From: an uncultured bacterium
GTDB taxonomy: Bacteria; Abyssobacteria; SURF-5
Direction of reading: 5' to 3'
Length of the DNA: 11,816 nucleotides
Assembly (NCBI GenBank): GCA_964510165.1
Contig: CAZEBC010000037.1
Coordinates: 13,971 to 25,786 of the forward strand
Made by a program: the position numbers and the translations under genes. Below the pieces are notes generated by a model, which was not told the origin of the DNA, searched no databases, and saw nothing but the letters and a program-made list of their open reading frames with translations. Position 1 is the first letter of the stretch. Each line of letters opens with the position of its first letter. Shown piece by piece: positions 1-11,692 of this stretch.

Positions 1-1409
1 TCGCCCTCGAGGGCGACCTCGCCTTCGTGTTCGCGCATATACATGTAAACGATGACCCTGATATAGTAATAGGCCGCGACGACGCTTGTGAGGACGCCGA
101 TGATCGCGAGAGGCCAGTTATCGGTCAGTACCGCGGCTTTGAATATATACAGTTTACCGATAAAGCCGAATGTAGGGGGTATGCCAGTCAGCGACAGCAT
201 CAGAACGGCCATCAGAAGAGCGGTTATCGGCTTGCGCTTGGCAAGGCCTGCGTAATCGGAGAGCGATTCGCGGGGGTCGTTGGCCTTAGCGAGGCTGATG
301 ACAATGGCAAACGCTCCCAAATTCATGAACATATAGGCGAACAGATACACGAGGACGCTCATCATGGACTCCGGCTTGAGCGCCTCCATGACCGCCGCGA
401 GCTTCGGGTCACCCGAGGTTCTTGCCAGTTCGGTTGCCGAGCCGGCGGCCACAATGCCAATGAGCAGATAGCCTGCGTGCGCGATAGACGAGTACGCAAG
501 CATCCGTTTGATGTTCTGCTGGGAGACGGCGATGACGTTGCCGACGATCATCGTGAGGACCGACAATACCCAGAAGAGCAGTGTCCAGTCCGGAATCAGC
601 AAGTTAAATGATGTCATGTACACCCGCAGGATAACTGCGAATCCGGCGACCTTGGGGCCGACGGACATAAAGGCGGTCAACGGGGTCGGCGCTCCTTCGT
701 ACACGTCGGGAGTCCACATGTGAAACGGCACGGCGGCGATTTTGAAACCGAAGCCGACCGTCATCAGCACGAGCGACAGCGTAATCAGCCTTGAGTTCAG
801 CATGTTTTGCGTGAAGTCAAGGTAGCGTTGGATCCCGACAAGGTTGGTCGTTCCGGTGATCCCGTAGAAAAAGGACATTCCATAGAGCAAGACGGCCGAT
901 GCGAATGCTCCGAGGAGGAAATACTTCATTGAGGCCTCGGACGAGCGCGGATTCTCCCTCTGGAACCCGGCCATAAGATAAATGGAAATGGACATGAGCT
1001 CGAGGCCGATGTAAATGGTGATGAGGTCATTGGCGGCGACCATCACCATCATGCCGACGGTGGAGAAGAGTATCAGTTCGTAGTACTCGGCGGCATTGAT
1101 GTTGAAGAGCCGCAGATAGCGGGGCGACATGAGTATGGAGAAAGCGGCGGAAAGGACGAATATCAGTTTGAAAAACTGGGCGTAAGGGTCGACGGCCACC
1201 ATTCCGCCAAAGGCGGTTTCCTTTCGGTCCCAGATGAGCATGAGCAGCGTGATGAGAAAGGCAACGGCCAATCCCACGACGCCGATGGCAGTCAGCCCTG
1301 CCGGACGCTCTTTCTTCGCCAACAAGTCCACCACCAGCACGGTGAGCCCCACCAGCCCAACAATGAACTCAGGATAGACAGCCGTAATATCGACAACCGG
1401 AAGTTGCAT
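1..1409 (-). CDS. nuoN: NADH-quinone oxidoreductase subunit N (antiporter-like); 3' end runs off the window
   Basis: Not in the ORF track because it has no stop in the window; translated by hand from ATG at 1409 (GGAG RBS at 1420..1417): MQLPVVDITAVYPEFIVGLVGLTVLVVDLL...YIGLELMSISIY...SEASMKYFLLGAFAS...GFKIAAVPFHMWTPDVYEGAPTP...GPKVAGF...NIKRMLAYSSIAHAGY...SLTGIPPTFGFIGKLYIF...AYYYIRVIVYMY. The frame is open to the window edge, and the characteristic NuoN charged residues are intact. Confidence 0.96.
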   Translation of the reverse strand, partial: MQLPVVDITAVYPEFIVGLVGLTVLVVDLLAKKERPAGLTAIGVVGLAVAFLITLLMLIWDRKETAFGGMVAVDPYAQFFKLIFVLSAAFSILMSPRYLRLFNINAAEYYELILFSTVGMMVMVAANDLITIYIGLELMSISIYLMAGFQRENPRSSEASMKYFLLGAFASAVLLYGMSFFYGITGTTNLVGIQRYLDFTQNMLNSRLITLSLVLMTVGFGFKIAAVPFHMWTPDVYEGAPTPLTAFMSVGPKVAGFAVILRVYMTSFNLLIPDWTLLFWVLSVLTMIVGNVIAVSQQNIKRMLAYSSIAHAGYLLIGIVAAGSATELARTSGDPKLAAVMEALKPESMMSVLVYLFAYMFMNLGAFAIVISLAKANDPRESLSDYAGLAKRKPITALLMAVLMLSLTGIPPTFGFIGKLYIFKAAVLTDNWPLAIIGVLTSVVAAYYYIRVIVYMYMREHEGEVALEG

Positions 1410-1422
1410 TCTTCAGCTCCAC

Positions 1423-3264
1423 CTAATGGCCTGCAGGGCCTGATTGTCCTGGATGTTCGGGGGCTTGAGCTTCAACCCCGTGAACCGCCCCGACGGGCGG
1501 ATGCGCAGCTTCTCCCTGATGGACCTTTGCTCCGACGGACTGCATGCCTTCTTCGCCGCTCATGCCTGCATGCGAATCGGGCATTATCGGCGGATGACCG
1601 GGCGGTAGGATCGGTGGATGATCGGGTGGCAGGCTCAGTTCAAGGCCCGCCGGATGGCCCTGCCCTTTCATGCGGGCTTGTTCCAGCATCAGTTGCTTTT
1701 CTGCGAGTGCAGCCTTTGGATTAGAAACTTCAACGGTTTTCGCCACGGCGGCATCCATGAATTCGAGGAAGGGCTTCGGGTACAGCCCTATCCAAGCGCA
1801 CATAAGCACAATGGGGATGAGCGTCATGGCTTCCCGCAGGTCGAGGTCCTTCAAGGTCATGTTCTTCGGGTTTTCGAGCTTGCCGAACATCACGCGCTGA
1901 TACAGCCAGAGCATATAAGCGGCGCCCAGCACGATACCACTGGTGGCAAGCAGCACAAGCGTTCTTGAGACGGCAGTGTTCACGACGGCCGCCTCGTTCC
2001 ATAGTGCTCGGAAAGCGCCGACAAGGATCGTGAATTCGCCGATGAACCCGTTGAGTCCCGGCAGTCCGATCGAGGAGAGGGTGACCACCATAAACAGCGC
2101 AGCGTACAGCGGCATCTGTTTGCTGAGCCCTCCGAACTCCTTGATCATGCGAGTATGCCTGCGTTCGTAAATGAGGCCGACCACAAGGAACAGCGCCCCG
2201 GTGCTCAGGCCGTGGTTAATCATTTGAAGAATACCGCCTTCGATGCCCTGCTGGTTGAGCGCAAACACGCCGAGCATCACAAAGCCCAAGTGGCTGACGC
2301 TGGAATACGCAACCAGTTTCTTCATGTCGGGTTGCATCATCGCGGTCAGGGCGCCATAGACGATCCCGACGACGGCAAGTATGATGCCGTAAGGCATGAA
2401 CCACATGGTCGCATCGGGGAACAGCGGCAGACTGAACCTCACGAAGCCGTAGGTGCCCATTTTCAGCAAGACGCCGGCCAGGATGACGCTGCCCGCCGTA
2501 GGCGCCTCGGTGTGGGCGTCGGGCAACCAGGTATGGAACGGGAACATTGGCACCTTGATCGCGAAACCGACAAAGAAGGCGAGGAACAACCACTTCTCGA
2601 TATGGAACGGGATATCGAGGGCGTAGAACTTCATGATCTCGAAGGTGAGCACGTTGTGTTCCTGATAGTACAGGAAGTAAAGACCGAGGATCGCGAGCAG
2701 CATGAGCACGCTGCCTGCGAGCGTGTACAGGAAGAACTTTATCGCAGCATAGAGTTTGCGCTCGCCGCCCCACACGCCGATGAGGAAGTACATCGGAACC
2801 AGCATGACTTCCCAGAACACGTAGAAGAGGAAGAAGTCAAGCGAGAAGAACACGCCCAACATGCCGGTCTGAAGCAAGAGCATGAACACATAGTATTCCT
2901 TCACGCGCTCCTGTATTGCGGTCCACGACGAGAGCACCGCGAGCACGCCCAGGAACGTCGTGAGCATCACCAGAAGGATGCTGATGCCGTCAACGCCGAA
3001 GAAGTACTGAACGCCGAGGCTCTCGATCCATGGGACCTGTTCGACAAACTGAACGACGTGCCGGTCCTTGGCGAACCCCGTTATAAGGCGGAGCGAAATG
3101 ATGAAATCGACCAGGACCACGATGTTGGAGAACCATCGGATCGTGTTGTCTCGGCGCAGAAACAGCATTATGATGAGCGCGCCGAGAACCGGGATATAGG
3201 TGATTATCGAGAGTATGGGCCACTTCAGCCCCATGTCGTAATAGTTTAGTATTTCGGGCGTCAA
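1423..3264 (-). CDS. nuoM: NADH-quinone oxidoreductase subunit M, with a long His/Pro-rich C-terminal tail
   Basis: Motifs GVDGIS, FYVFWEVMLVPMYFLIGVWGG, FAIKVPMFPFHTWLPDAHTEAPT, LLKMGTYG, KKLVAYSSVSHLG, GLPGLNGFIGEF. TTG start preceded by GGGAGAG. Lies between nuoL and nuoN. Confidence 0.96.
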   Translation of the reverse strand: MTPEILNYYDMGLKWPILSIITYIPVLGALIIMLFLRRDNTIRWFSNIVVLVDFIISLRLITGFAKDRHVVQFVEQVPWIESLGVQYFFGVDGISILLVMLTTFLGVLAVLSSWTAIQERVKEYYVFMLLLQTGMLGVFFSLDFFLFYVFWEVMLVPMYFLIGVWGGERKLYAAIKFFLYTLAGSVLMLLAILGLYFLYYQEHNVLTFEIMKFYALDIPFHIEKWLFLAFFVGFAIKVPMFPFHTWLPDAHTEAPTAGSVILAGVLLKMGTYGFVRFSLPLFPDATMWFMPYGIILAVVGIVYGALTAMMQPDMKKLVAYSSVSHLGFVMLGVFALNQQGIEGGILQMINHGLSTGALFLVVGLIYERRHTRMIKEFGGLSKQMPLYAALFMVVTLSSIGLPGLNGFIGEFTILVGAFRALWNEAAVVNTAVSRTLVLLATSGIVLGAAYMLWLYQRVMFGKLENPKNMTLKDLDLREAMTLIPIVLMCAWIGLYPKPFLEFMDAAVAKTVEVSNPKAALAEKQLMLEQARMKGQGHPAGLELSLPPDHPPILPPGHPPIMPDSHAGMSGEEGMQSVGAKVHQGEAAHPPVGAVHGVEAQAPEHPGQSGPAGH

Positions 3265-3312: not shown

Positions 3313-5433
3313 TTATCTCAATACAATATAAATGCCCAGAAGCAGGATGATCCCGATCGCCATCGCCAGAGCGTAATTCTGAACGTAGCCCGTCTGGATG
3401 CGTCTGAGCATGCCACTTCCAACCTCAATCACTCTTCCCGCAAGGTTAACAAGACCGTCGATGACGCCGCCGTCAAACAGGATGGAGGCGCTGCTGAAGG
3501 CCCGTGTCGCGTAAGCGGCCCCGTTGACTATGCCATCGATAATGTTGGCGTCAAACCAGCAGAGGACAAGCGCGAACTGCTTGGTCCCGTTCACAAAGGC
3601 AAAGTTATAAATCTCGTCAACGTACCATTTGTTCAAGAGCGTCTTATGGAGCCGCGGGAGCTTAAATTGGAGCAGGAGCGGAATATTGGTATTCTTAATG
3701 TACATATAATAGCCGGTACCGATGCCGGCGCCTGCAATCAAGACGGAGACCGCCATCATGAGAAGCTCGAGGGAGCGCGAATGTTCTTCGCCTGCGGATG
3801 CGCCATGGGAAACGACCTCAGCGGCGTAGGCCAGCCCGCTTGTTATGGCGGCGTGCGCCCCATGCCCGCCGTGGGCCGCCTTGTCAACTATCGGCGCCAA
3901 GAAATGGTGGAAATGATTTGCTCCGCCGAGAGCGGCCGGCACGCCCACAAGGCCGCCTATGACCGACAAAACGGCGAGCGCCATGAGCGGATATATCATC
4001 GAGCCGGGCGACTCGTGCAGGTGATGCGCGGCCTCATGTGAAACCCTCGACTCACCATAGAAAGTCATGAATACAAGGCGCGACATATAGAATGCGGTCA
4101 TGAGCGCCGCGGTCGCGGCGACCGCCCAAAGGAACTTTCCCCACAGCGGGCCGAGGACCGGGGATTCATAGGTGAACGCCTTCCAGAGTATTTCGTCCTT
4201 GCTGAAAAATCCGGAGAACGGCGGTATTCCTGAGATGGCAAGATACGCGCACATGAACGTCCACCAGGTGTGTTTCATGTGTTTCCTGAGGCCGCCCATG
4301 TTGCGCATGTCTTGGTCGCCACTCATGCCGTGGATGACGCTGCCGGCCCCGAGGAACAGGAGGGCTTTGAAGAAAGCGTGAGTCATAAGATGGAAGATAC
4401 CTGCAGCATACGAAGCGACGCCGCAGGCCAGGAACATGTATCCGAGCTGGCTGACCGTTGAGTAGGCCAAGACCTTCTTTATGTCGTACTGAGCCATGCC
4501 GATGGTTGCCGAGAAGAACGCCGTGGCCGCCCCGACAGCAGCAACGACGGCGAGCGTGACGGGCGCCATCGAATACAGGGCGTTGCTGCGAGCTATCATA
4601 TATACGCCCGACGTAACCATCGTAGCGGCATGGATGAGCGCGCTGGTTGGAGTCGGGCCCTCCATCGCGTCCGGCAGCCACACGTAGAGTGGAATCTGCG
4701 CCGACTTGCCCGTCGCGCCCACGAAGAGAAACAGGGTAATCAAGGTAACGAGGGCGCCGCCCGCCTGGAGCTTGTGGGGCGCTTGCGCAAACACGTCCTG
4801 GTAATCAAGCGTGCCGAAAGTCAGAAATATCAACATCATTCCGAGCACGAACCCAAAGTCGCCGATGCGGTTAGTGACGAATGCCTTCTTCCCCGCGTTC
4901 GCGGCTGAGTCCTTCTCGAACCAGAACCCGATGAGAAGGTAAGAGCACAGTCCGACGCCTTCCCATCCGATAAACATCATAAGGAAATTGCCGCCCAGGA
5001 CGAGGATCAGCATGGCGCAGGTGAACAGATTCATGTATGCGAAGAAGCGGTACTGGCCGCCATCGCCGTGCATGTATCCCTTCGAGTAGACATGGATGAG
5101 GAAGCCGACACCGGTGACAACGAGGATCATGACCGACGAGAGCGCGTCAAGCTGGAACTTGAACGGTACCCTGAACGCCCCCATTTCGATCCAAGTGTAG
5201 ACTTCCTTTGTGAAGATGCGGGCGCCTTCCTCGTTCGGCATGATGCGCGACAGGGCGAGCACGCAGAGGACGGACGTTACAAAAGAGAGGAATATGGATG
5301 TGCACCCGATGACAGCAGGGACCAGTTCGGTCTTGCCCTGGAAAAATTTTCTGCCAAGGAGTCCTATCGTCAGGAAACCGATGAAAGGGAACAGCGGAAT
5401 TAACCAGATGTACTCTAGTACGTTGGTCATCAT
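3313..5433 (-). CDS. nuoL: NADH-quinone oxidoreductase subunit L, with an extended amphipathic helix
   Basis: Motifs LIHVYSKGYM, FIGWEGVGLCSYLLIGFW, KKAFVTNRIGDFG, GKSAQIPLYVWLPDAMEGPTPTSALIHAATMV, HLMTHAFFKALLFL, FSKDEIL, and C-terminal QTGYVQNYAL followed by a final TM. Confidence 0.97.
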   Translation of the reverse strand: MMTNVLEYIWLIPLFPFIGFLTIGLLGRKFFQGKTELVPAVIGCTSIFLSFVTSVLCVLALSRIMPNEEGARIFTKEVYTWIEMGAFRVPFKFQLDALSSVMILVVTGVGFLIHVYSKGYMHGDGGQYRFFAYMNLFTCAMLILVLGGNFLMMFIGWEGVGLCSYLLIGFWFEKDSAANAGKKAFVTNRIGDFGFVLGMMLIFLTFGTLDYQDVFAQAPHKLQAGGALVTLITLFLFVGATGKSAQIPLYVWLPDAMEGPTPTSALIHAATMVTSGVYMIARSNALYSMAPVTLAVVAAVGAATAFFSATIGMAQYDIKKVLAYSTVSQLGYMFLACGVASYAAGIFHLMTHAFFKALLFLGAGSVIHGMSGDQDMRNMGGLRKHMKHTWWTFMCAYLAISGIPPFSGFFSKDEILWKAFTYESPVLGPLWGKFLWAVAATAALMTAFYMSRLVFMTFYGESRVSHEAAHHLHESPGSMIYPLMALAVLSVIGGLVGVPAALGGANHFHHFLAPIVDKAAHGGHGAHAAITSGLAYAAEVVSHGASAGEEHSRSLELLMMAVSVLIAGAGIGTGYYMYIKNTNIPLLLQFKLPRLHKTLLNKWYVDEIYNFAFVNGTKQFALVLCWFDANIIDGIVNGAAYATRAFSSASILFDGGVIDGLVNLAGRVIEVGSGMLRRIQTGYVQNYALAMAIGIILLLGIYIVLR

Positions 5434-5454: not shown

Positions 5455-5757
5455 TCACCATTTCAGAGAGTTTGCTTCGTCCACGTTGACGGCCCGGCTG
5501 ACCCTGAAGAGCGCAATCAATATGGCAAGGCCGGTGGCTGCCTCGGCCGCGGCCACCGTAATCACAAACACGGCGAACACCTGTCCGTGAGCCGAGTTGA
5601 GCTGGTTGGAGAAGGCCACCAGGTTGAGCCCGACGGCGTTGAGCATCAATTCTATCGACATGAAGATCACTATCAGGTTCCGTCTAATAAGGAACCCGAG
5701 CATCCCGATGCAGAACAGCACGGCGCCAAGCATCATCGAATGGGAAAGCGGAATCAT
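5455..5757 (-). CDS. nuoK: NADH-quinone oxidoreductase subunit K
   Basis: 100 aa with 3 TMs; [17 protein letters not shown] and [21 protein letters not shown] retain both conserved Glu. Its start overlaps the nuoJ stop (ATGA at 5757..5754). Confidence 0.96.
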
Positions 5758-6293
5758 CCGGCATGCTCCTTGATTGCGGATTCGGCGGGTTTCTTTGCGC
5801 GACGGGCAAGGATCACCGACCCTATCATAGCCACGAGCAGCAACACCGAAGCGATTTCAAATGGATACAAGTACGTGAGGAACAGTTCGCTGGCAAAATC
5901 GCGAGTTGTGTCAGCACGTACAACAGGCTCGACATCTTCTATGCTGAATGGGGTAATGCCCGGCCCGCTCACCTGAAGGATGATCACCATCAACAGGGCT
6001 GCGAACAGGACGGCAAAGAAAATCTGCCTAGGCTTGTGGAAGGCGGCCCGGACCGCCGCTTCTTTGGAGAGGTCCACGAGCATTATCACAAAGACATACA
6101 ACACGAGCACTCCGCCGGCGTAAATAATCAACTGCACGGCAGCCACAAACTCGGCGCTGAGCAGGAGATAGATTCCCGCGAGGCTGAAAAGCGTCACGAG
6201 CAGCCACAGGGCGGAATGCATGGGATTACGGCGGGTCACGACCATTACAGCGGACGCCAGAGCCACCGTGCCAAGGATATAAAATGAGGGCAT
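5754..6293 (-). CDS. nuoJ: NADH-quinone oxidoreductase subunit J
   Basis: [36 protein letters not shown], and [30 protein letters not shown] lies 3 nt after the stop of the upstream gene, with an AAGGA RBS inside that gene's 3' end. Confidence 0.94.
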
Positions 6294-6296
6294 CGC

Positions 6297-8885
6297 CTAT
6301 TCCTTCTTCGCACTGATGCCCGCAAGCCAAATCGGAGCGGGCTGCTCCGGCCTGAACACTGCGGCATCAAGTTTTCCGATCAATGCGCCCACAGTTTCGA
6401 AATCATGAGCTGGGACGCTGACGACTCCCGGCGGCAGTTCCCGGCTTATGCGCATGGGCAGTTTGGCAGAACCGCCACCTTTTACTCTTAACTCCACGAC
6501 AGCGCCGTCTTGAAGTCCCAGCGCCGCTGCATCATTTTCACTGAATTCCACCATTCCGTCAACACGCACCTTGCCCAGGCTCGCTGATCGCAGCGAGGTC
6601 CTTCCCCCAAAGTGGAGCATGTTATCGAATGTCAAGATGTAAGGATACTGGCCGTTGCCCGATGCCTGACTCTCCGTCACAACGGAAAGCCTGAGCCTTG
6701 TGCCGGCGGCTACCTTCGAGTAGTCCCAGGCGCCCACGCCGGCAAGCGGGTCGGCACCTATAAAATCATAAATGGGTGTCGAAGCGGCTATCTGGGAACG
6801 AGCCGCCTGAACTGTTTCCAATGCGGTCAACCCGAGCCTCTGCCCGAGCTCGGAGAGAATTTCAAGGTCCGAATATGCAGAACCAACGGGATCGATTGCC
6901 TTGCCGCTGTGCTGGACGATCCGGTAAGCATTTGTGTAGGATGCTTCGCGTTCCGCAAAACTGCAAGCGGGCAGAACAACGTGCGCCACCTCGGCGACAG
7001 GTCCGCCGAACACATCCTGCACGATCAGGCAATCAAGCCCCTGCAGCGACTCAAGCGGCACTCCGAGCAGGGCCATCTCCTTGCGAATGTCGCCGCCTAC
7101 CAGATAAAGAGCTTTTATGTCACCCGACTCGATACCATGAAGAATGGATGAAAGCCCGGCCGATCCGTTTGACACAGCCTCTTTGTAGCCTGGCAGGAAA
7201 TCGGGCGTGACGCCCATATCGAGCGCGCCTTGGGCGTTACCCTCCCGCAAGAGCGAGAGGGTCTTGCCACCCTTGAGCACGGCGAGGTTGACCGCGGCCC
7301 TGGCAATCGAGGAGTTCACGGCGGCATGAAGACTTCCCGGCGACAATACAACCAGGAAGTTCTTGGCGCTCGCAATACCTTCCGCGATTTCCGCAATGAT
7401 TGTTGGGTCAATCCCAGTGCGGGCGGCAGTGTCGTTGAGCGGGTATTTCATGAGATGCAGCCTGAGCTTATCAAAGCCTTCGGTGCGTCCTTTAAGGGCC
7501 GCCTCGTCAAGTGCGCCCTTCTCAACCATGATATTAGTGAGGCAATTGAGCAGTGCGGCCTCGGAGCCAGGTGTTGTTCGCGCATACTGGGTGCACTGCG
7601 TGGTAAACTTGTTCGAGCGGTGACCGACGACGTAGACCTTCGTTCCCTTCAAATGGAAGACGCGAAGCATCTCGAGGGCAGCCACCGGATGCGTGCAAAT
7701 AATATTTGAGTCAACTACCAGGATCGCGTCAGCATCATCTATGTCGGTGAGCGTCGCGGTTGGCGCGGGCACGCCGTATACGTCGGTCATTGTCTGCATG
7801 ACTGCGAAATTGTCGAGGCGAGCAAGGGTGTCCAGGGAATTGGCGCCGAGCCCGTCGCGCATCACCCGCTGGAATGCATAGAGGGCCTCGTTTGAGCAAC
7901 GAGCCGATGCCAGTCCGGCAACGCTGTTGCTTCCATGTTTCGAGATCGTCTTCTTCAGTTGATCGGCGGCATAATCGAGAGCCTCTTCCCACTCCACGTT
8001 CTTGAGGCTTCCGTTTTTGCGAATGGCCGGCGCAGTGAGGCGCGCTTCGCTGTGGACGGCATCCCTTCCAAACCTGCCGACCGAGCAGAGATTGCCTTTG
8101 TTATGTCCCTGGAAGTCGCGAACCGTGACCCGATAAACCTTATTGTTGCGGACGTTCAATTCGTGCGCGCAGCCGATCCCGCAGAAAGTGCATATCGAAT
8201 CCTTCTTCTCGAGTTGCCAGGCGCGCGCACTATAGCGAAACGTCGAGTCGATGATGGCGCCGACGGGGCAAACCGAGAGACATTGGGAACAACTTTCGCA
8301 CGGGTACCCGTCGAATTCGACCGGGCCCACTTTCGAGGCGAACCCGCTCCGAACCACGTAATCGATCGCGCGCGCTCCCTGCACTTCCTTGCAAATCTGA
8401 ACGCACCGCCCGCACATGATGCAGCGTGTGTGCCACAAGTCGAGCACCGGCGACAACTCCTCCTTGGTCTTTTCAGGCTTTGCCGACCAGAACGGCTGCT
8501 CGAGGACGCACATCTCGACGGTGATGTCCTGCACCTCGCATTCGCCCGCCTTGTCGCAGACCGGGCAGTCGAGCGGATGATGAAGGAGGACTAACTGGAG
8601 CATCTGTTTTCGCCGGCGGATGATTTCCTCGGTGTTGGTGCGAACGACCATTCCCTCACGCGCTTGAGTGTCACACGAGGCGACCGGCCTGTCCTCGCCC
8701 TCAACCTCGACAAGGCACACTCTGCATGCGCCGATGGGGAACAGTTTTGAATGATAGCAGAGGGTGGGAATATAGATTCCTGCCGATTCGGCTGCTTTGA
8801 GGATTGTCGTACCTTCGGGAACGCTTACCTTCTTGTCGTCTATAGTCAGATTTACCATCGGAAGTTCTTCTGCCCTTTGCTCCAT
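6297..8885 (-). CDS. sfrA: SfrA-like / NuoG-like iron-sulfur protein (molybdopterin-oxidoreductase fold without the Mo-ligand Cys); alpha subunit of an NADPH oxidoreductase module
   Basis: 2Fe-2S motif (PTLCYH..GACRVC..ASC), His-ligated cluster (HPLDCPVCDKAGEC), two ferredoxin-type motifs (CIMCGRCVQIC; CESCSQCLSVCP) and CTFCGIGC...NLC. The site equivalent to the FdhF Cys/Sec ligand reads DTLARLDN. Paired with an SfrB-like gene, as in Geobacter sfrBA (recognised from memory, not by search). Alternative start at 8858 (MVNLTID). Confidence 0.8.
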   Translation of the reverse strand: MEQRAEELPMVNLTIDDKKVSVPEGTTILKAAESAGIYIPTLCYHSKLFPIGACRVCLVEVEGEDRPVASCDTQAREGMVVRTNTEEIIRRRKQMLQLVLLHHPLDCPVCDKAGECEVQDITVEMCVLEQPFWSAKPEKTKEELSPVLDLWHTRCIMCGRCVQICKEVQGARAIDYVVRSGFASKVGPVEFDGYPCESCSQCLSVCPVGAIIDSTFRYSARAWQLEKKDSICTFCGIGCAHELNVRNNKVYRVTVRDFQGHNKGNLCSVGRFGRDAVHSEARLTAPAIRKNGSLKNVEWEEALDYAADQLKKTISKHGSNSVAGLASARCSNEALYAFQRVMRDGLGANSLDTLARLDNFAVMQTMTDVYGVPAPTATLTDIDDADAILVVDSNIICTHPVAALEMLRVFHLKGTKVYVVGHRSNKFTTQCTQYARTTPGSEAALLNCLTNIMVEKGALDEAALKGRTEGFDKLRLHLMKYPLNDTAARTGIDPTIIAEIAEGIASAKNFLVVLSPGSLHAAVNSSIARAAVNLAVLKGGKTLSLLREGNAQGALDMGVTPDFLPGYKEAVSNGSAGLSSILHGIESGDIKALYLVGGDIRKEMALLGVPLESLQGLDCLIVQDVFGGPVAEVAHVVLPACSFAEREASYTNAYRIVQHSGKAIDPVGSAYSDLEILSELGQRLGLTALETVQAARSQIAASTPIYDFIGADPLAGVGAWDYSKVAAGTRLRLSVVTESQASGNGQYPYILTFDNMLHFGGRTSLRSASLGKVRVDGMVEFSENDAAALGLQDGAVVELRVKGGGSAKLPMRISRELPPGVVSVPAHDFETVGALIGKLDAAVFRPEQPAPIWLAGISAKKE

Positions 8886-8889
8886 GCCC

Positions 8890-10851
8890 TTACGAGGCGG
8901 TCATCATAATCCTGTAGCACCGCATGCAGCGCTCGGCCTCGGCTACGGCCGTCTGCTCGCTGAATCCCAACTCGACTTCCTTCAAATTGCCGATCCGCTC
9001 CTTCGGTGGAAGGGCGGGCATCTTTGCGCGCTTTAAACCGCTCACGCCTGCGCAATATTCCTCTTTATCGACCGGCCCGAGCGCCTGGATGATCTTGCGC
9101 ATCCGCATCAACCTGTCGAAGTCGTCATGCTTTCCGCCGCTCAGGTACTTGTCAATCGAGACCGCTGCCTGAAGACCTTGCTGCACCGCGAGGATTACGG
9201 ACTGAGGGCCGGTTGCGGCGTCTCCGCCCGCGAACACGCCGGGCAGCGTGGTTGCGAGGGAATCGGGGTCGACCTCAAACGTGCTGTACTTGGTGATTCC
9301 AAGCCCGTCAATCGTTTTGAAGTAATCCATGTCCGGCGCCTGGCTGACCGCGGCAATCACAAGATCGGCCTCTATCACAAACTCGGAGCCCTTCACGGGC
9401 ACCGGCCTGCGACGCCCGCTCTGGTCAGGCTCGCCGAGTTCCATCCGTATGCATTCAATGCCTTTGACCTTGCCGTTTTCGCCGATGACCCGGGTGGGCG
9501 CGGCCAGGAAGTGCAGCTTCACGCCTTCGTGCTCGGCCTCTTCCACCTCCCACGGGCTGGCGGGCATCTCGGCGCGGGTTCGTCGATAGACGATGTTCAC
9601 GTCCTCGTAGCCCAAATGGACCGGCACACGCGCGCAGTCGATTGCAGAGTTTCCGCCTCCAATCACTATTACCTTCTTGCCGGAAGGAGGCGGCTCGCCA
9701 AGGTTTATTCGGCGGAGAAAGTCCATGGCATCCATGATGCCCTCGTTTTCTTCCTCGCCGGGGATTTCGAGCTTTCGGCCCTTCATCGCGCCGATGGCCA
9801 GAAAGACGGCCTTGAAACCCTGCGCAAACAAATCCTGAATGGAAAAATCCTTCCCGAGCGCGGTGTTGGTCTTTACCTGCACTCCATATTCCTGCACCTG
9901 CTCGATTTCGCCGTTGACGATGTCGCGCGGCAGGCGGTAGGCCGGTATTCCAAGATGAGTAGTGCCCCCGACAACGGGAGCGGCCTCGAAGATGGTGACG
10001 TCATAATCCCATGCGGCAAGCTCGCGCGCGCATGTTGCACCCGCTGGCCCGCTTCCGACAACGGCCACTTTCCCCTTTTCCCCCGTAGACCGATGTGGGG
10101 CGAATCGGAACTGCTTCTGCCTGATAAGCTTCTTCTCGTAATCTGAGACGGACCGCTTCAGGTAAGCTATGGAGATCGGCTCGTCAACTTCGCCTCGCTT
10201 GCACAGCGTCTCGCATGGATGGAAGCACGCACGGCCGCATACCGCCGCAAACGGGTTCGGCGCGCGGGCAACATCTATGGCTGTATTGTATTTGTGTTCT
10301 CGTATGAGTTCAATGTAACGCGCTGCGTCGGTCGAGGCGGGGCAACCGATATTGCACGGCGCCATCATGATCGATTCGGTCGGCGCCGCCGCGCACTTCT
10401 TGCCCTTCAAGTGGGCCTCGAATTCGGCATGGAAGTTATCAAGCGCATCAAGGAGCGGCTTCTCCATCGCGATGCCGAAACCGCACAGCGCCGTGCTGCG
10501 GATGTCGCTTACGAGTGGTCTTAGCCTCTCGACGTCACAGATATCGCCCTCGCCGCTTGCGATCCGGGACAGCGTATCATATATAACGCGCGAACCGACC
10601 CGGCAGGGAAAACACTTGCCGCACGACTTCGCCTGCACCTGCTCGAAGAAGCTGGTCATCAACTGAACGACGCACACATCCTGGCTCAGCAGGACGAGAC
10701 CGCCCCATCCGACGACCGCTTTGAGGTTCGGCGGGCATTTGTCACTTGCGAAAAACTTCGTGTGAGCGGCGGGGATTTTGTCGGCGGTCTCCTCGCCAGC
10801 CAGTTTTCCGCATGGTTTCACAAACCAACTGTCAAAAAAAATCTCGGCCAA
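8890..10851 (-). CDS. sfrB: SfrB-like FAD/Fe-S NADP(H) oxidoreductase (N-terminal NuoF-type 4Fe-4S domain + GltD/NfnB-like domain)
   Basis: SCGKCFPCRVG...ALCGFG (NuoF N3-type cluster), APCNIGCPA and VCGRACFHPCETLCKR (GltD-type Fe-S domain), VAVVGSGPAG (FAD), GIPAYRLP, VIGGGNSAIDC followed by YRR (NADPH-type site), PGVFAGGD, and C-terminal EAERCMRCYR. TTG start with a GGGAGAG RBS. Confidence 0.85.
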   Translation of the reverse strand: MAEIFFDSWFVKPCGKLAGEETADKIPAAHTKFFASDKCPPNLKAVVGWGGLVLLSQDVCVVQLMTSFFEQVQAKSCGKCFPCRVGSRVIYDTLSRIASGEGDICDVERLRPLVSDIRSTALCGFGIAMEKPLLDALDNFHAEFEAHLKGKKCAAAPTESIMMAPCNIGCPASTDAARYIELIREHKYNTAIDVARAPNPFAAVCGRACFHPCETLCKRGEVDEPISIAYLKRSVSDYEKKLIRQKQFRFAPHRSTGEKGKVAVVGSGPAGATCARELAAWDYDVTIFEAAPVVGGTTHLGIPAYRLPRDIVNGEIEQVQEYGVQVKTNTALGKDFSIQDLFAQGFKAVFLAIGAMKGRKLEIPGEEENEGIMDAMDFLRRINLGEPPPSGKKVIVIGGGNSAIDCARVPVHLGYEDVNIVYRRTRAEMPASPWEVEEAEHEGVKLHFLAAPTRVIGENGKVKGIECIRMELGEPDQSGRRRPVPVKGSEFVIEADLVIAAVSQAPDMDYFKTIDGLGITKYSTFEVDPDSLATTLPGVFAGGDAATGPQSVILAVQQGLQAAVSIDKYLSGGKHDDFDRLMRMRKIIQALGPVDKEEYCAGVSGLKRAKMPALPPKERIGNLKEVELGFSEQTAVAEAERCMRCYRIMMTAS

Positions 10852-11090: not shown

Positions 11091-11525
11091 TCACGTCTTC
11101 TGCGGCCCCGGAACCGGGAACGCCACCGGCTTTATCGAGCGGAATATGTTGTAAACGAAAAATAAGATCGAGACCACATGCCCAATGCCGGAAACTGCGA
11201 TCCCTGCGCGCATCGCGCCGACATACGGCGTCATCTCCATGGCTGTCCAGAAAACCGCCATCAGCGCCAGCGTCACGGTCCCGAGATAATAATGCGCCAC
11301 CATCAAGGTCCGGCTGTGAATCAGCATACCGCTAAACCTGGGCAAAACATGGTAACCTACTCCGTAAATCATCATTGCCATGAACCCGAGCAGGTTCAGG
11401 TGAGTGTGCGCATTGACGAAATAGAGTGCATGGTACGGAAACATGGCCATATCGATGCCCAGGGCCGAGCCTGTAATCAGGCTGACCAGGCTTGTCTTGA
11501 TGAACAGAATCACATACTTGTCCAT
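11091..11525 (-). CDS. Small 4-TM membrane protein resembling the HxH (heme-ligand) segment of heme-copper oxidase / cbb3 subunit I
   Basis: The likely start is ATG at 11525 (MDKYVILF, 144 aa) with a GAGGAGG RBS 8 nt upstream, rather than the TTG at 11561. It has four hydrophobic segments and the motif AHTHLNLLGFMAMMIYGVGYHVLPRFSG. Confidence 0.75.
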   Translation of the reverse strand: MDKYVILFIKTSLVSLITGSALGIDMAMFPYHALYFVNAHTHLNLLGFMAMMIYGVGYHVLPRFSGMLIHSRTLMVAHYYLGTVTLALMAVFWTAMEMTPYVGAMRAGIAVSGIGHVVSILFFVYNIFRSIKPVAFPVPGPQKT

Positions 11526-11557
11526 GGCGTCTACCTCCTCCGTTGACTCTCTCTGCC

Positions 11558-11692
11558 TCAAGGTTCCTTCATTCGGTCATCAACTATCTTGCTGTCATGG
11601 AGAAGCACCAGTCTTCGCGCATACTTCATGACCATATTGTCCTGCGTGGAAAAGAGGAAGGTGATTTCTCTCCGTTCATTCATTTCCTTCAT
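11558..11692 (-). pseudogene. C-terminal remnant of a LolD/MacB-type ABC transporter ATP-binding protein
   Basis: Hand translation: MKEMNERREITFLFSTQDNMVMKYARRLVLLHDSKIVDDRMKEP*. This matches the post-D-loop end of LolD-like ATPases (TxxxxTHD...A.R...L.DG.I), with the H-loop His replaced by Gln and DG by DS. The frame hits a stop about 10 codons upstream, and no Walker A/B is present in frame. Confidence 0.65.

Follow-up and report, generated by a model that had tools for sequence, protein, structure and literature searches.

An ancient tandem duplication lengthens the transverse helix of NuoL in a complex I cassette with a single nuoM

In this study we analysed a stretch of 11,816 nucleotides from an uncultured bacterium of the Abyssobacteria lineage SURF-5 (contig CAZEBC010000037.1 of assembly GCA_964510165.1), here called the window. 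It carries part of a complex I gene cassette, and our subject is one gene of it, nuoL. In the C-terminal arm of the encoded protein the long amphipathic transverse helix (HL), which connects transmembrane helices (TM) 15 and 16 and holds the proton-pumping subunits together, contains a 26-residue unit in two tandem copies. The gene and the relevant parts of its product are listed below; helix limits and confidence values (pLDDT, predicted local distance difference test) are those of an AlphaFold2 (AF2) monomer model.

nuoL, 3313..5433, minus strand: 706 residues, antiporter-like subunit L with a C-terminal TM15-HL-TM16 arm
TM15, 3694..3789, minus strand: residues 549-580, distal anchor of HL, predicted helix at 549-580 with pLDDT 81-95
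HL unit A, 3586..3627, minus strand: residues 603-616, WYVDEIYNFAFVNG, beginning of the transverse helix, with a weaker likeness to the repeat unit
HL unit B, 3478..3555, minus strand: residues 627-652, first 26-residue copy, aligning with the single unit of canonical NuoL
HL unit B', 3400..3477, minus strand: residues 653-678, second copy
QTG hinge and TM16, 3316..3396, minus strand: residues 680-706, proximal anchor of HL, predicted helix at 684-705

On the evidence of its domains, its charged residues and its TM15-HL-TM16 arm, the open reading frame (ORF) at 3313-5433 belongs to the NuoL/Nqo12/ND5 family. Pfam matches covered the antiporter core (Proton_antipo_M, PF00361, 2.9e-83) and the chain-5 N-terminal domain (PF00662, 7.4e-21), and NuoL, ND5 and NdhF chains from the PDB matched with E-values from 1e-136 to 1e-110. 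In the alignment E. coli NuoL E144, K229, H254, K342, K399 and D400 correspond to the identical residues E158, K243, H268, K356, K412 and D413 of the window protein. We take these residues, and those of NuoM and NuoN named below, to be the charged residues of the proton path as given in the E. coli literature. Much of the extra length of the protein comes from a His/Gly/Ala-rich loop between TM14 and TM15 (HFHHF…HGGHGAHAA…; residues ~502-548, window 3790-3930, minus strand), in which pLDDT is below 50 at residues 521-548.

The duplicated unit and its spread among NuoL sequences

The first-pass annotation of this DNA had placed two in-register 26-residue units at residues 627-652 (nt 3555-3478) and 653-678 (nt 3477-3400). 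Both were recovered at exactly these positions, as was the span of 78 residues from VDEIY to QTG (VDEIY begins at residue 605, QTG is 680-682, counted inclusively). Units B and B' are identical at 9 of 26 residues, concentrated in the motif FDxx[IV]IDGxVN. At the DNA level 38 of 78 bases are identical, and the duplication is therefore ancient and not a recent DNA repeat. The in-register BLOSUM62 score of the two units was 33, compared with a mean of -22.4 (standard deviation 11.4) for shuffled sequences, and was reached by none of 100,000 shuffles. When the best 26-residue self-match was sought at any offset in the 105-residue tail, it was found at offset 26 with a score of 47, reached by none of 3,000 shuffles. 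Across 20 long-HL sequences the self-similarity gave a sharp peak at the same offset (+0.33 per position, against a background of about -1). The likeness of B and B' is thus far beyond chance, and we concluded that the HL insertion arose through an ancient in-frame tandem duplication of one 26-residue unit. Unit A (WYVDEIY…VNG) produced minor self-similarity peaks at offsets 22 and 44. Its residue D606 was invariant across 45 sequences; in the hinge of the same sequences G682 was likewise invariant and Q680 was present in at least 90%.

That the second copy is a net insertion, as had been proposed, was confirmed by alignment. We aligned 82 NuoL rows with MAFFT, namely the window protein, those of 80 related loci and a second nuoL product from one of these loci (L055). 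Within window columns 596-690, 21 rows had 94 residues (98 in locus L019) and 59 had 65-72, while 2 rows were truncated; long- and short-HL rows differed by a single gap of 26 columns. In phmmer comparisons with PDB chains both units matched one and the same stretch, residues 648-661 of Paracoccus 8qby_L and 605-622 of T. elongatus NdhF 6hum_F, so that the window NuoL has 26 extra residues in each case. Two overlapping stretches of T. thermophilus 4he8_L (529-565 and 546-603) were matched as well. Of unit B', the head makes up the net insertion and the tail (…LRR) lines up with the canonical segment before QTG. Canonical NuoL/Nqo12/ND5 proteins of solved three-pump complexes (E. coli 3RKO, T. 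thermophilus 4HE8, P. denitrificans 8QBY) share with the window NuoL the 14-TM antiporter core, the charged residues and the TM15-HL-TM16 arm. However, they have one kink unit and an anchor-to-QTG distance of 50-54 residues, whereas the window NuoL has two units and a distance of 76.

The duplicated unit corresponds to a known contact site. E. coli NuoL D563-P564-L565-N566 aligns with residues 630-633 of the window protein, inside unit B. According to Belevich et al. 2011 (PMC3274701; this and the other PMC papers are cited from excerpts), P564 lies in the HL kink that contacts NuoM, L565 and N566 are the residues nearest NuoM in 3RKO, and insertions of 6-7 residues in HL (P552ins6/ins7) reduce activity and the H+/e- ratio in E. 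coli. Since unit B aligns with this kink, the window NuoL has the M-contact kink twice, 26 residues apart.

The nearest relatives of the window NuoL come from metagenome-assembled genomes resembling Candidatus (Ca.) Abyssubacteria, at the loci L001 (84% identity) and L003 (79%). A long HL was found in 20 of the 80 related loci: these two, 17 from Acidobacteriota and one from an unclassified bacterium (L007). In a wider set the two units stood exactly 26 residues apart in 101 of 202 sequences, giving 99 distinct pairs. As judged from these sequences, the duplication defines a large long-HL subfamily of NuoL. When the HL arm was used as a database query, 120 proteins were retrieved, 121 with the query itself. 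The anchor-to-QTG distance was 76-77 in 85 of the 121, 51-52 in 27 and 80 in 3, and 6 were left unscored by the pattern. An unconstrained loop should vary in length, whereas this distance is almost fixed. The three proteins with a distance of 80 (P0120, P0121 and P0122) reach it through a different, non-duplicative Trp-rich insertion in front of a single kink unit, and HL has therefore been lengthened by more than one route.

Within the 99 distinct pairs the core positions of the unit were conserved as follows.

Position D2: unit B 99/99, unit B' 99/99
Position D7: unit B 99/99, unit B' 99/99
Position G8: unit B 99/99, unit B' 95/99
Position V10: unit B 98/99, unit B' 98/99
Position N11: unit B 98/99 N, unit B' 67 N and 31 R of 99

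At position 1 unit B has F, against F or W in B'. In the 21 long-HL sequences of the alignment D654, D659, G660 and V662 of unit B' were kept throughout. Between proteins the identity was 0.48 for unit B and 0.42 for B', compared with 0.31 for B against B' within a protein and 0.32 between proteins. Each unit is thus more conserved between proteins than the two resemble each other, from which we concluded that both are under selection and do not undergo concerted evolution, which suggests different environments.

In a quick tree of the core region, from which the truncated rows L035 and L063 were excluded, the long-HL rows fell into five patches with weak deep nodes; a single long-HL clade was not rejected by the approximately unbiased (AU) test (p = 0.154). 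A tblastn search of plasmids with the HL arm gave 8 weak matches, none of them long-HL.

Gene content of the long-HL cassettes

The minus-strand operon of the window runs in the order NuoF-C/GltD fusion, NuoG-like gene, nuoJ, nuoK, nuoL, nuoM, nuoN. Apart from nuoL its genes are:

NuoF-C/GltD-like fusion gene, 8890-10851, minus strand: 653 residues, assigned by Pfam, first gene of the operon
NuoG-like gene, 6297-8885, minus strand: 862 residues, assigned by Pfam, with nuoJ directly after it
nuoJ, 5754-6293, minus strand: PF00499, 9.1e-40
nuoK, 5455-5757, minus strand: PF00420, 6.8e-27
nuoM, 1423..3264, minus strand: 613 residues, the only M-type gene of the cassette; PF00361 (5.6e-80) and PF01059
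nuoN, 3..1409, minus strand: 469 residues, cut at the left end of the window (502 residues in L001); PF00361, 1.7e-80

The gaps between the pump genes are short, 48 nt from nuoL to nuoM (with the TTG at 3264 as the start of nuoM) and 13 nt from nuoM to nuoN, in agreement with the first-pass annotation. The residues that align with E. coli NuoM E144, K234, K265 and E407 are kept in the window NuoM, and those that align with NuoN E133, K217, K247 and K395 in NuoN. With the charged residues of active pumps retained, the L, M and N subunits look functional. At its C-terminus the window NuoM has a low-complexity tail rich in Pro, His and Gly, about 110 residues long (…DHPPILPPGHPPIMPDSH…; window 1423-1750, minus strand), which the 509-residue NuoM of E. 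coli lacks.

The fusion protein joins the C-terminal 4Fe-4S domain of NuoF, without the FMN/NADH domain, to Fer4_20 and Pyr_redox_2 domains (GltD/NfnB-like). The fusion and NuoG-like genes precede nuoJ in L001 and L003 as well. A Pfam scan of the window proteins found neither nuoA-D, nuoH nor nuoI, nor a Complex1_51K domain, but the NuoG-like gene and the fusion are present. Outside the Abyssubacteria group the NuoF FMN domain was found in none of the 13 long-HL loci examined, and in 9 of the 13 nuoD abuts nuoH. NuoF was present in 9 of the 11 short-HL loci examined; in the other two, L018 and L073, too few ORFs were covered to judge. Part of this screen was limited to ORFs of at least 330 residues. 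The long HL goes with an 11-gene cassette without NuoE, NuoF and NuoG.

Among the 20 long-HL loci, 18 had the order L-M-N, one (L010) had L, a frameshifted M and N, and in one (L024) the contig ends in nuoL. No second nuoM was found in or near the cassette in any of the 20, and the order L-M-M-N occurred in none of the 80 loci. At least 6.4 kb after nuoN was available in 13 loci, and extra antiporter-like genes were seen there in only 2, both times from convergent second nuo operons (L055 17276-22033, minus strand, with L-M-N; L011 18742-21182, minus strand, with M-N). The second nuoL of L055 is short-HL, so this genome carries both HL types side by side. The two nuoM ORFs of L010, apparently separated by the frameshift, are halves of one gene and not two M genes. 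L009 and L010 are near-identical long-HL cassettes on one contig (CBDBHB010000006.1), and an IS110-family transposase lies upstream in L009.

In L001 and L003 nuoN is directly followed by an F-type ATP synthase operon (atpI-like, a, b, delta, alpha, gamma, beta), and no antiporter-like ORF was present within 6.4-6.6 kb past nuoN. ATP synthase genes directly after the long-HL cassette were seen in L001 (11278-17687), L003 (10625-15238), L008 (15799-19616), L020 (15462-15740, only the first, atpI-like gene) and L055 (15498-16715), so that this adjacency spans Abyssubacteria-like and Acidobacteriota loci.

Complex I with a second NuoM, the '2M' type (Chadwick et al. 2018, ISME J), is described in citing papers. 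In these, 2M complexes combine a lengthened NuoL with a second NuoM (PMC6606698, citing Chadwick et al. 2018), a 26-residue HL insertion is linked to extra pumps (Yu et al. 2022, PMC9040806), nuoM2 lies inside the operon in Chloroflexi (PMC7117926) and A. capsulatum has a duplicated nuoM (PMC11636273). The 2M complexes are also described as lacking NuoEFG (PMC7300363, PMC12342949, PMC6606698). The first-pass annotation had read the duplication as a 2M signature; the link that it drew from an extra pump to uphill electron transfer is speculative. The size and position of the insertion agree with the excerpts of PMC9040806 and PMC6606698, but neither the window nor any of the 20 long-HL relatives has the second nuoM that marks 2M complexes. 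The cassettes of these relatives resemble the 2M description in having no NuoE or NuoF and separate NuoC and NuoD. The window cassette, unlike 2M, has the NuoG-like gene and the NuoF-C/GltD fusion, and its nuoA-D, nuoH and nuoI are not local.

Another related case was described by Yu et al. (PMC9040806) for Ca. Manganitrophaceae, whose Complex_I_1 and Complex_I_2 "curiously" have HL insertions in NuoL despite canonical gene content and order. Like the window they combine the insertion with a single nuoM and the order L-M-N. The authors proposed that these complexes could already accommodate extra pumps, or that they represent an evolutionary transition. Ca. Manganitrophaceae belong to a different phylum, Nitrospirota, and their insertion is likened to ours by description and not by sequence; their clusters are also given as canonical, unlike the long-HL relatives found here, which have no NuoF. 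By its HL insertion and gene order the window falls under the same description of a long-HL complex I with one nuoM. This combination is thus already in print for one family, and in the excerpts covered, which do not extend to subscription papers, we found no other mention of it, nor of the origin of the insertion by duplication or of its breadth. The window thus adds a well-documented case to a known kind of HL extension, from a lineage and a cassette type for which such an extension had not been reported.

Three or four antiporter-like modules

To interpret the longer helix we asked how many antiporter-like modules it could span. An alpha-helix rises 1.5 Å per residue, so that 26 residues correspond to ~39 Å, roughly the width of one antiporter-like subunit. 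The duplication would thus add to HL about one module width together with a second M-type docking kink. With HL one module longer and this second kink, the most likely arrangement of the membrane arm is one with four antiporter-like positions from TM15 to TM16. Either the single NuoM would be present twice or a paralogue from another locus would occupy the additional position, rather than the product of a gene beside nuoN. We slightly favour such a four-module enzyme over one with three, as a tentative preference that falls short of even confidence. It is suggested by the conservation of both copies, the near-invariant length of HL, the mapping of the unit to the NuoM contact, the sensitivity of E. 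coli HL to inserted residues and the retained charged residues of the pumps. By analogy, an insertion of similar size reportedly accompanies four modules in published 2M enzymes (excerpts of PMC9040806), and the NuoF-less cassette type may likewise correspond to the 2M description.

Several observations weigh against four modules. A second nuoM is missing in or near the cassettes, and where sequence after nuoN was available extra antiporter-like genes came from separate nuo operons, as described above. We know of no precedent in complex I for a pump subunit that is unlinked or used twice. Published 2M cassettes hold the second M within the operon (excerpts of PMC7117926), so that to invoke such a subunit in several phyla takes an additional assumption. 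The divergence of B and B', each with conserved features of its own, suggests two different environments and not the same partner twice. Finally, the predicted geometry is not firm. The AF2 monomer of the window NuoL (mean pLDDT 82.5) has HL helical at residues 603-654, a break at 655-657 and a helix at 658-679, but pLDDT falls below 50 at the junction of the units (residues 642-659). In Foldseek comparisons the root mean square deviation (rmsd) of the model was ~13-14 Å against full-length PDB NuoL chains and ~4 Å against chains without HL. A control model of the short-HL protein of L005, built with the same 45 sequences, gave 8-10 Å and 3.6-4.3 Å in the matching comparisons. The larger rmsd of the long-HL model may be weakly suggestive, and we did not count it as evidence.

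An enzyme with three pumps is a plausible alternative, though one we hold to be somewhat doubtful. Unit B would then sit on NuoM and B' on the homologous NuoN, with TM16 anchored one module further, on the NuoK/J/A-NuoH side, or the extra unit would bulge; the insertion would be a longer clamp and would not point to a fourth pump. As to gene content, this needs no additional assumption: each of the 19 long-HL loci with sequence beyond nuoL has one M and one N, and the intergenic gaps of the window are short. Two different partners would also fit the finding that B and B' are each conserved yet differ, at position 11 (N against N or R) and at position 1 (F against F or W). However, the start of TM16, QTGxVQNYAL, is common to the window NuoL and the nearest short-HL proteins (L005, L013, L030), for which docking at NuoN is expected by homology. 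With this anchor unchanged, a rerouting to a new docking site is in turn an extra assumption, and published 2M enzymes reportedly pair an insertion of similar size with four modules (excerpts of PMC9040806). The first-pass annotation had held that a long helix common among relatives with demonstrably three-pump complexes, and modelled as a loop-out, would speak against a fourth pump. Half of this was found, as the long HL is indeed common and goes with three pump genes in 19 of 19 such loci, which are three-pump by gene count only.

Returning to four modules, a more specific version is that one nuoM product fills two adjacent positions and that HL acts as a ruler setting the number of pump modules. 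We regard this as unlikely, but its consequences would be considerable. The widespread long-HL enzymes with a single nuoM would then be unrecognised four-module complexes that move five protons per cycle. The HL duplication would have come first, and 2M cassettes would have formed later and repeatedly by nuoM duplication where room existed. Such an order would explain the reported convergent evolution of 2M cassettes.

The long helix could also be a relic of a 2M ancestor that lost its second nuoM, with the extension tolerated as a functionless loop-out. The AU test did not reject a single origin for the long helix in the sequences compared, which would be in line with this. The length of the helix is nevertheless near-invariant, and 99 distinct sequences from several phyla conserve both copies of the motif. 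As the copies share only 38 of 78 bases, there was ample time for decay, yet decay is absent, and no remnant of a second M was found in the 20 long-HL loci. We therefore consider a relic improbable. The earlier suggestion of a fourth pump gene just past nuoN, left of position 1, is compatible with the window itself, which stops inside nuoN, but with the ATP synthase operon in that place in both L001 and L003 we abandoned it as hardly credible.

The number of modules matters beyond this locus. Genome papers use the HL insertion as a mark of a fourth pump and of a higher H+/2e- ratio, and this shapes arguments on reverse electron flow to ferredoxin or NAD(P)+. Possibly many organisms have unrecognised four-module enzymes made from three pump genes; alternatively, the HL insertion alone may not diagnose an extra pump. 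Either outcome alters how the stoichiometry of complex I is read from genomes.

Minor features of the window and of related loci

Upstream of the operon a gap of 240 nt is followed by an ORF for a small membrane protein (11091-11561, minus strand, 156 residues). Its match to the C-terminal part of COX1 was weak and below threshold (E 5e-6; 26.1 bits, cut-off 34.8). Promoter and terminator scans of the window remained at the level of shuffled sequence (9 found against 5.7 expected, and 14 against 10.4).

A gene of the PF02636 family (Methyltransf_28) was present within the nuo region of three loci, L042 (4414-5469), L044 (4414-5469) and L011 (3770-4759). This is the family of NDUFAF7, the mitochondrial complex I assembly methyltransferase. 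In L042, the only one of the three with annotated neighbours, the gene sits between nuoB and nuoC.

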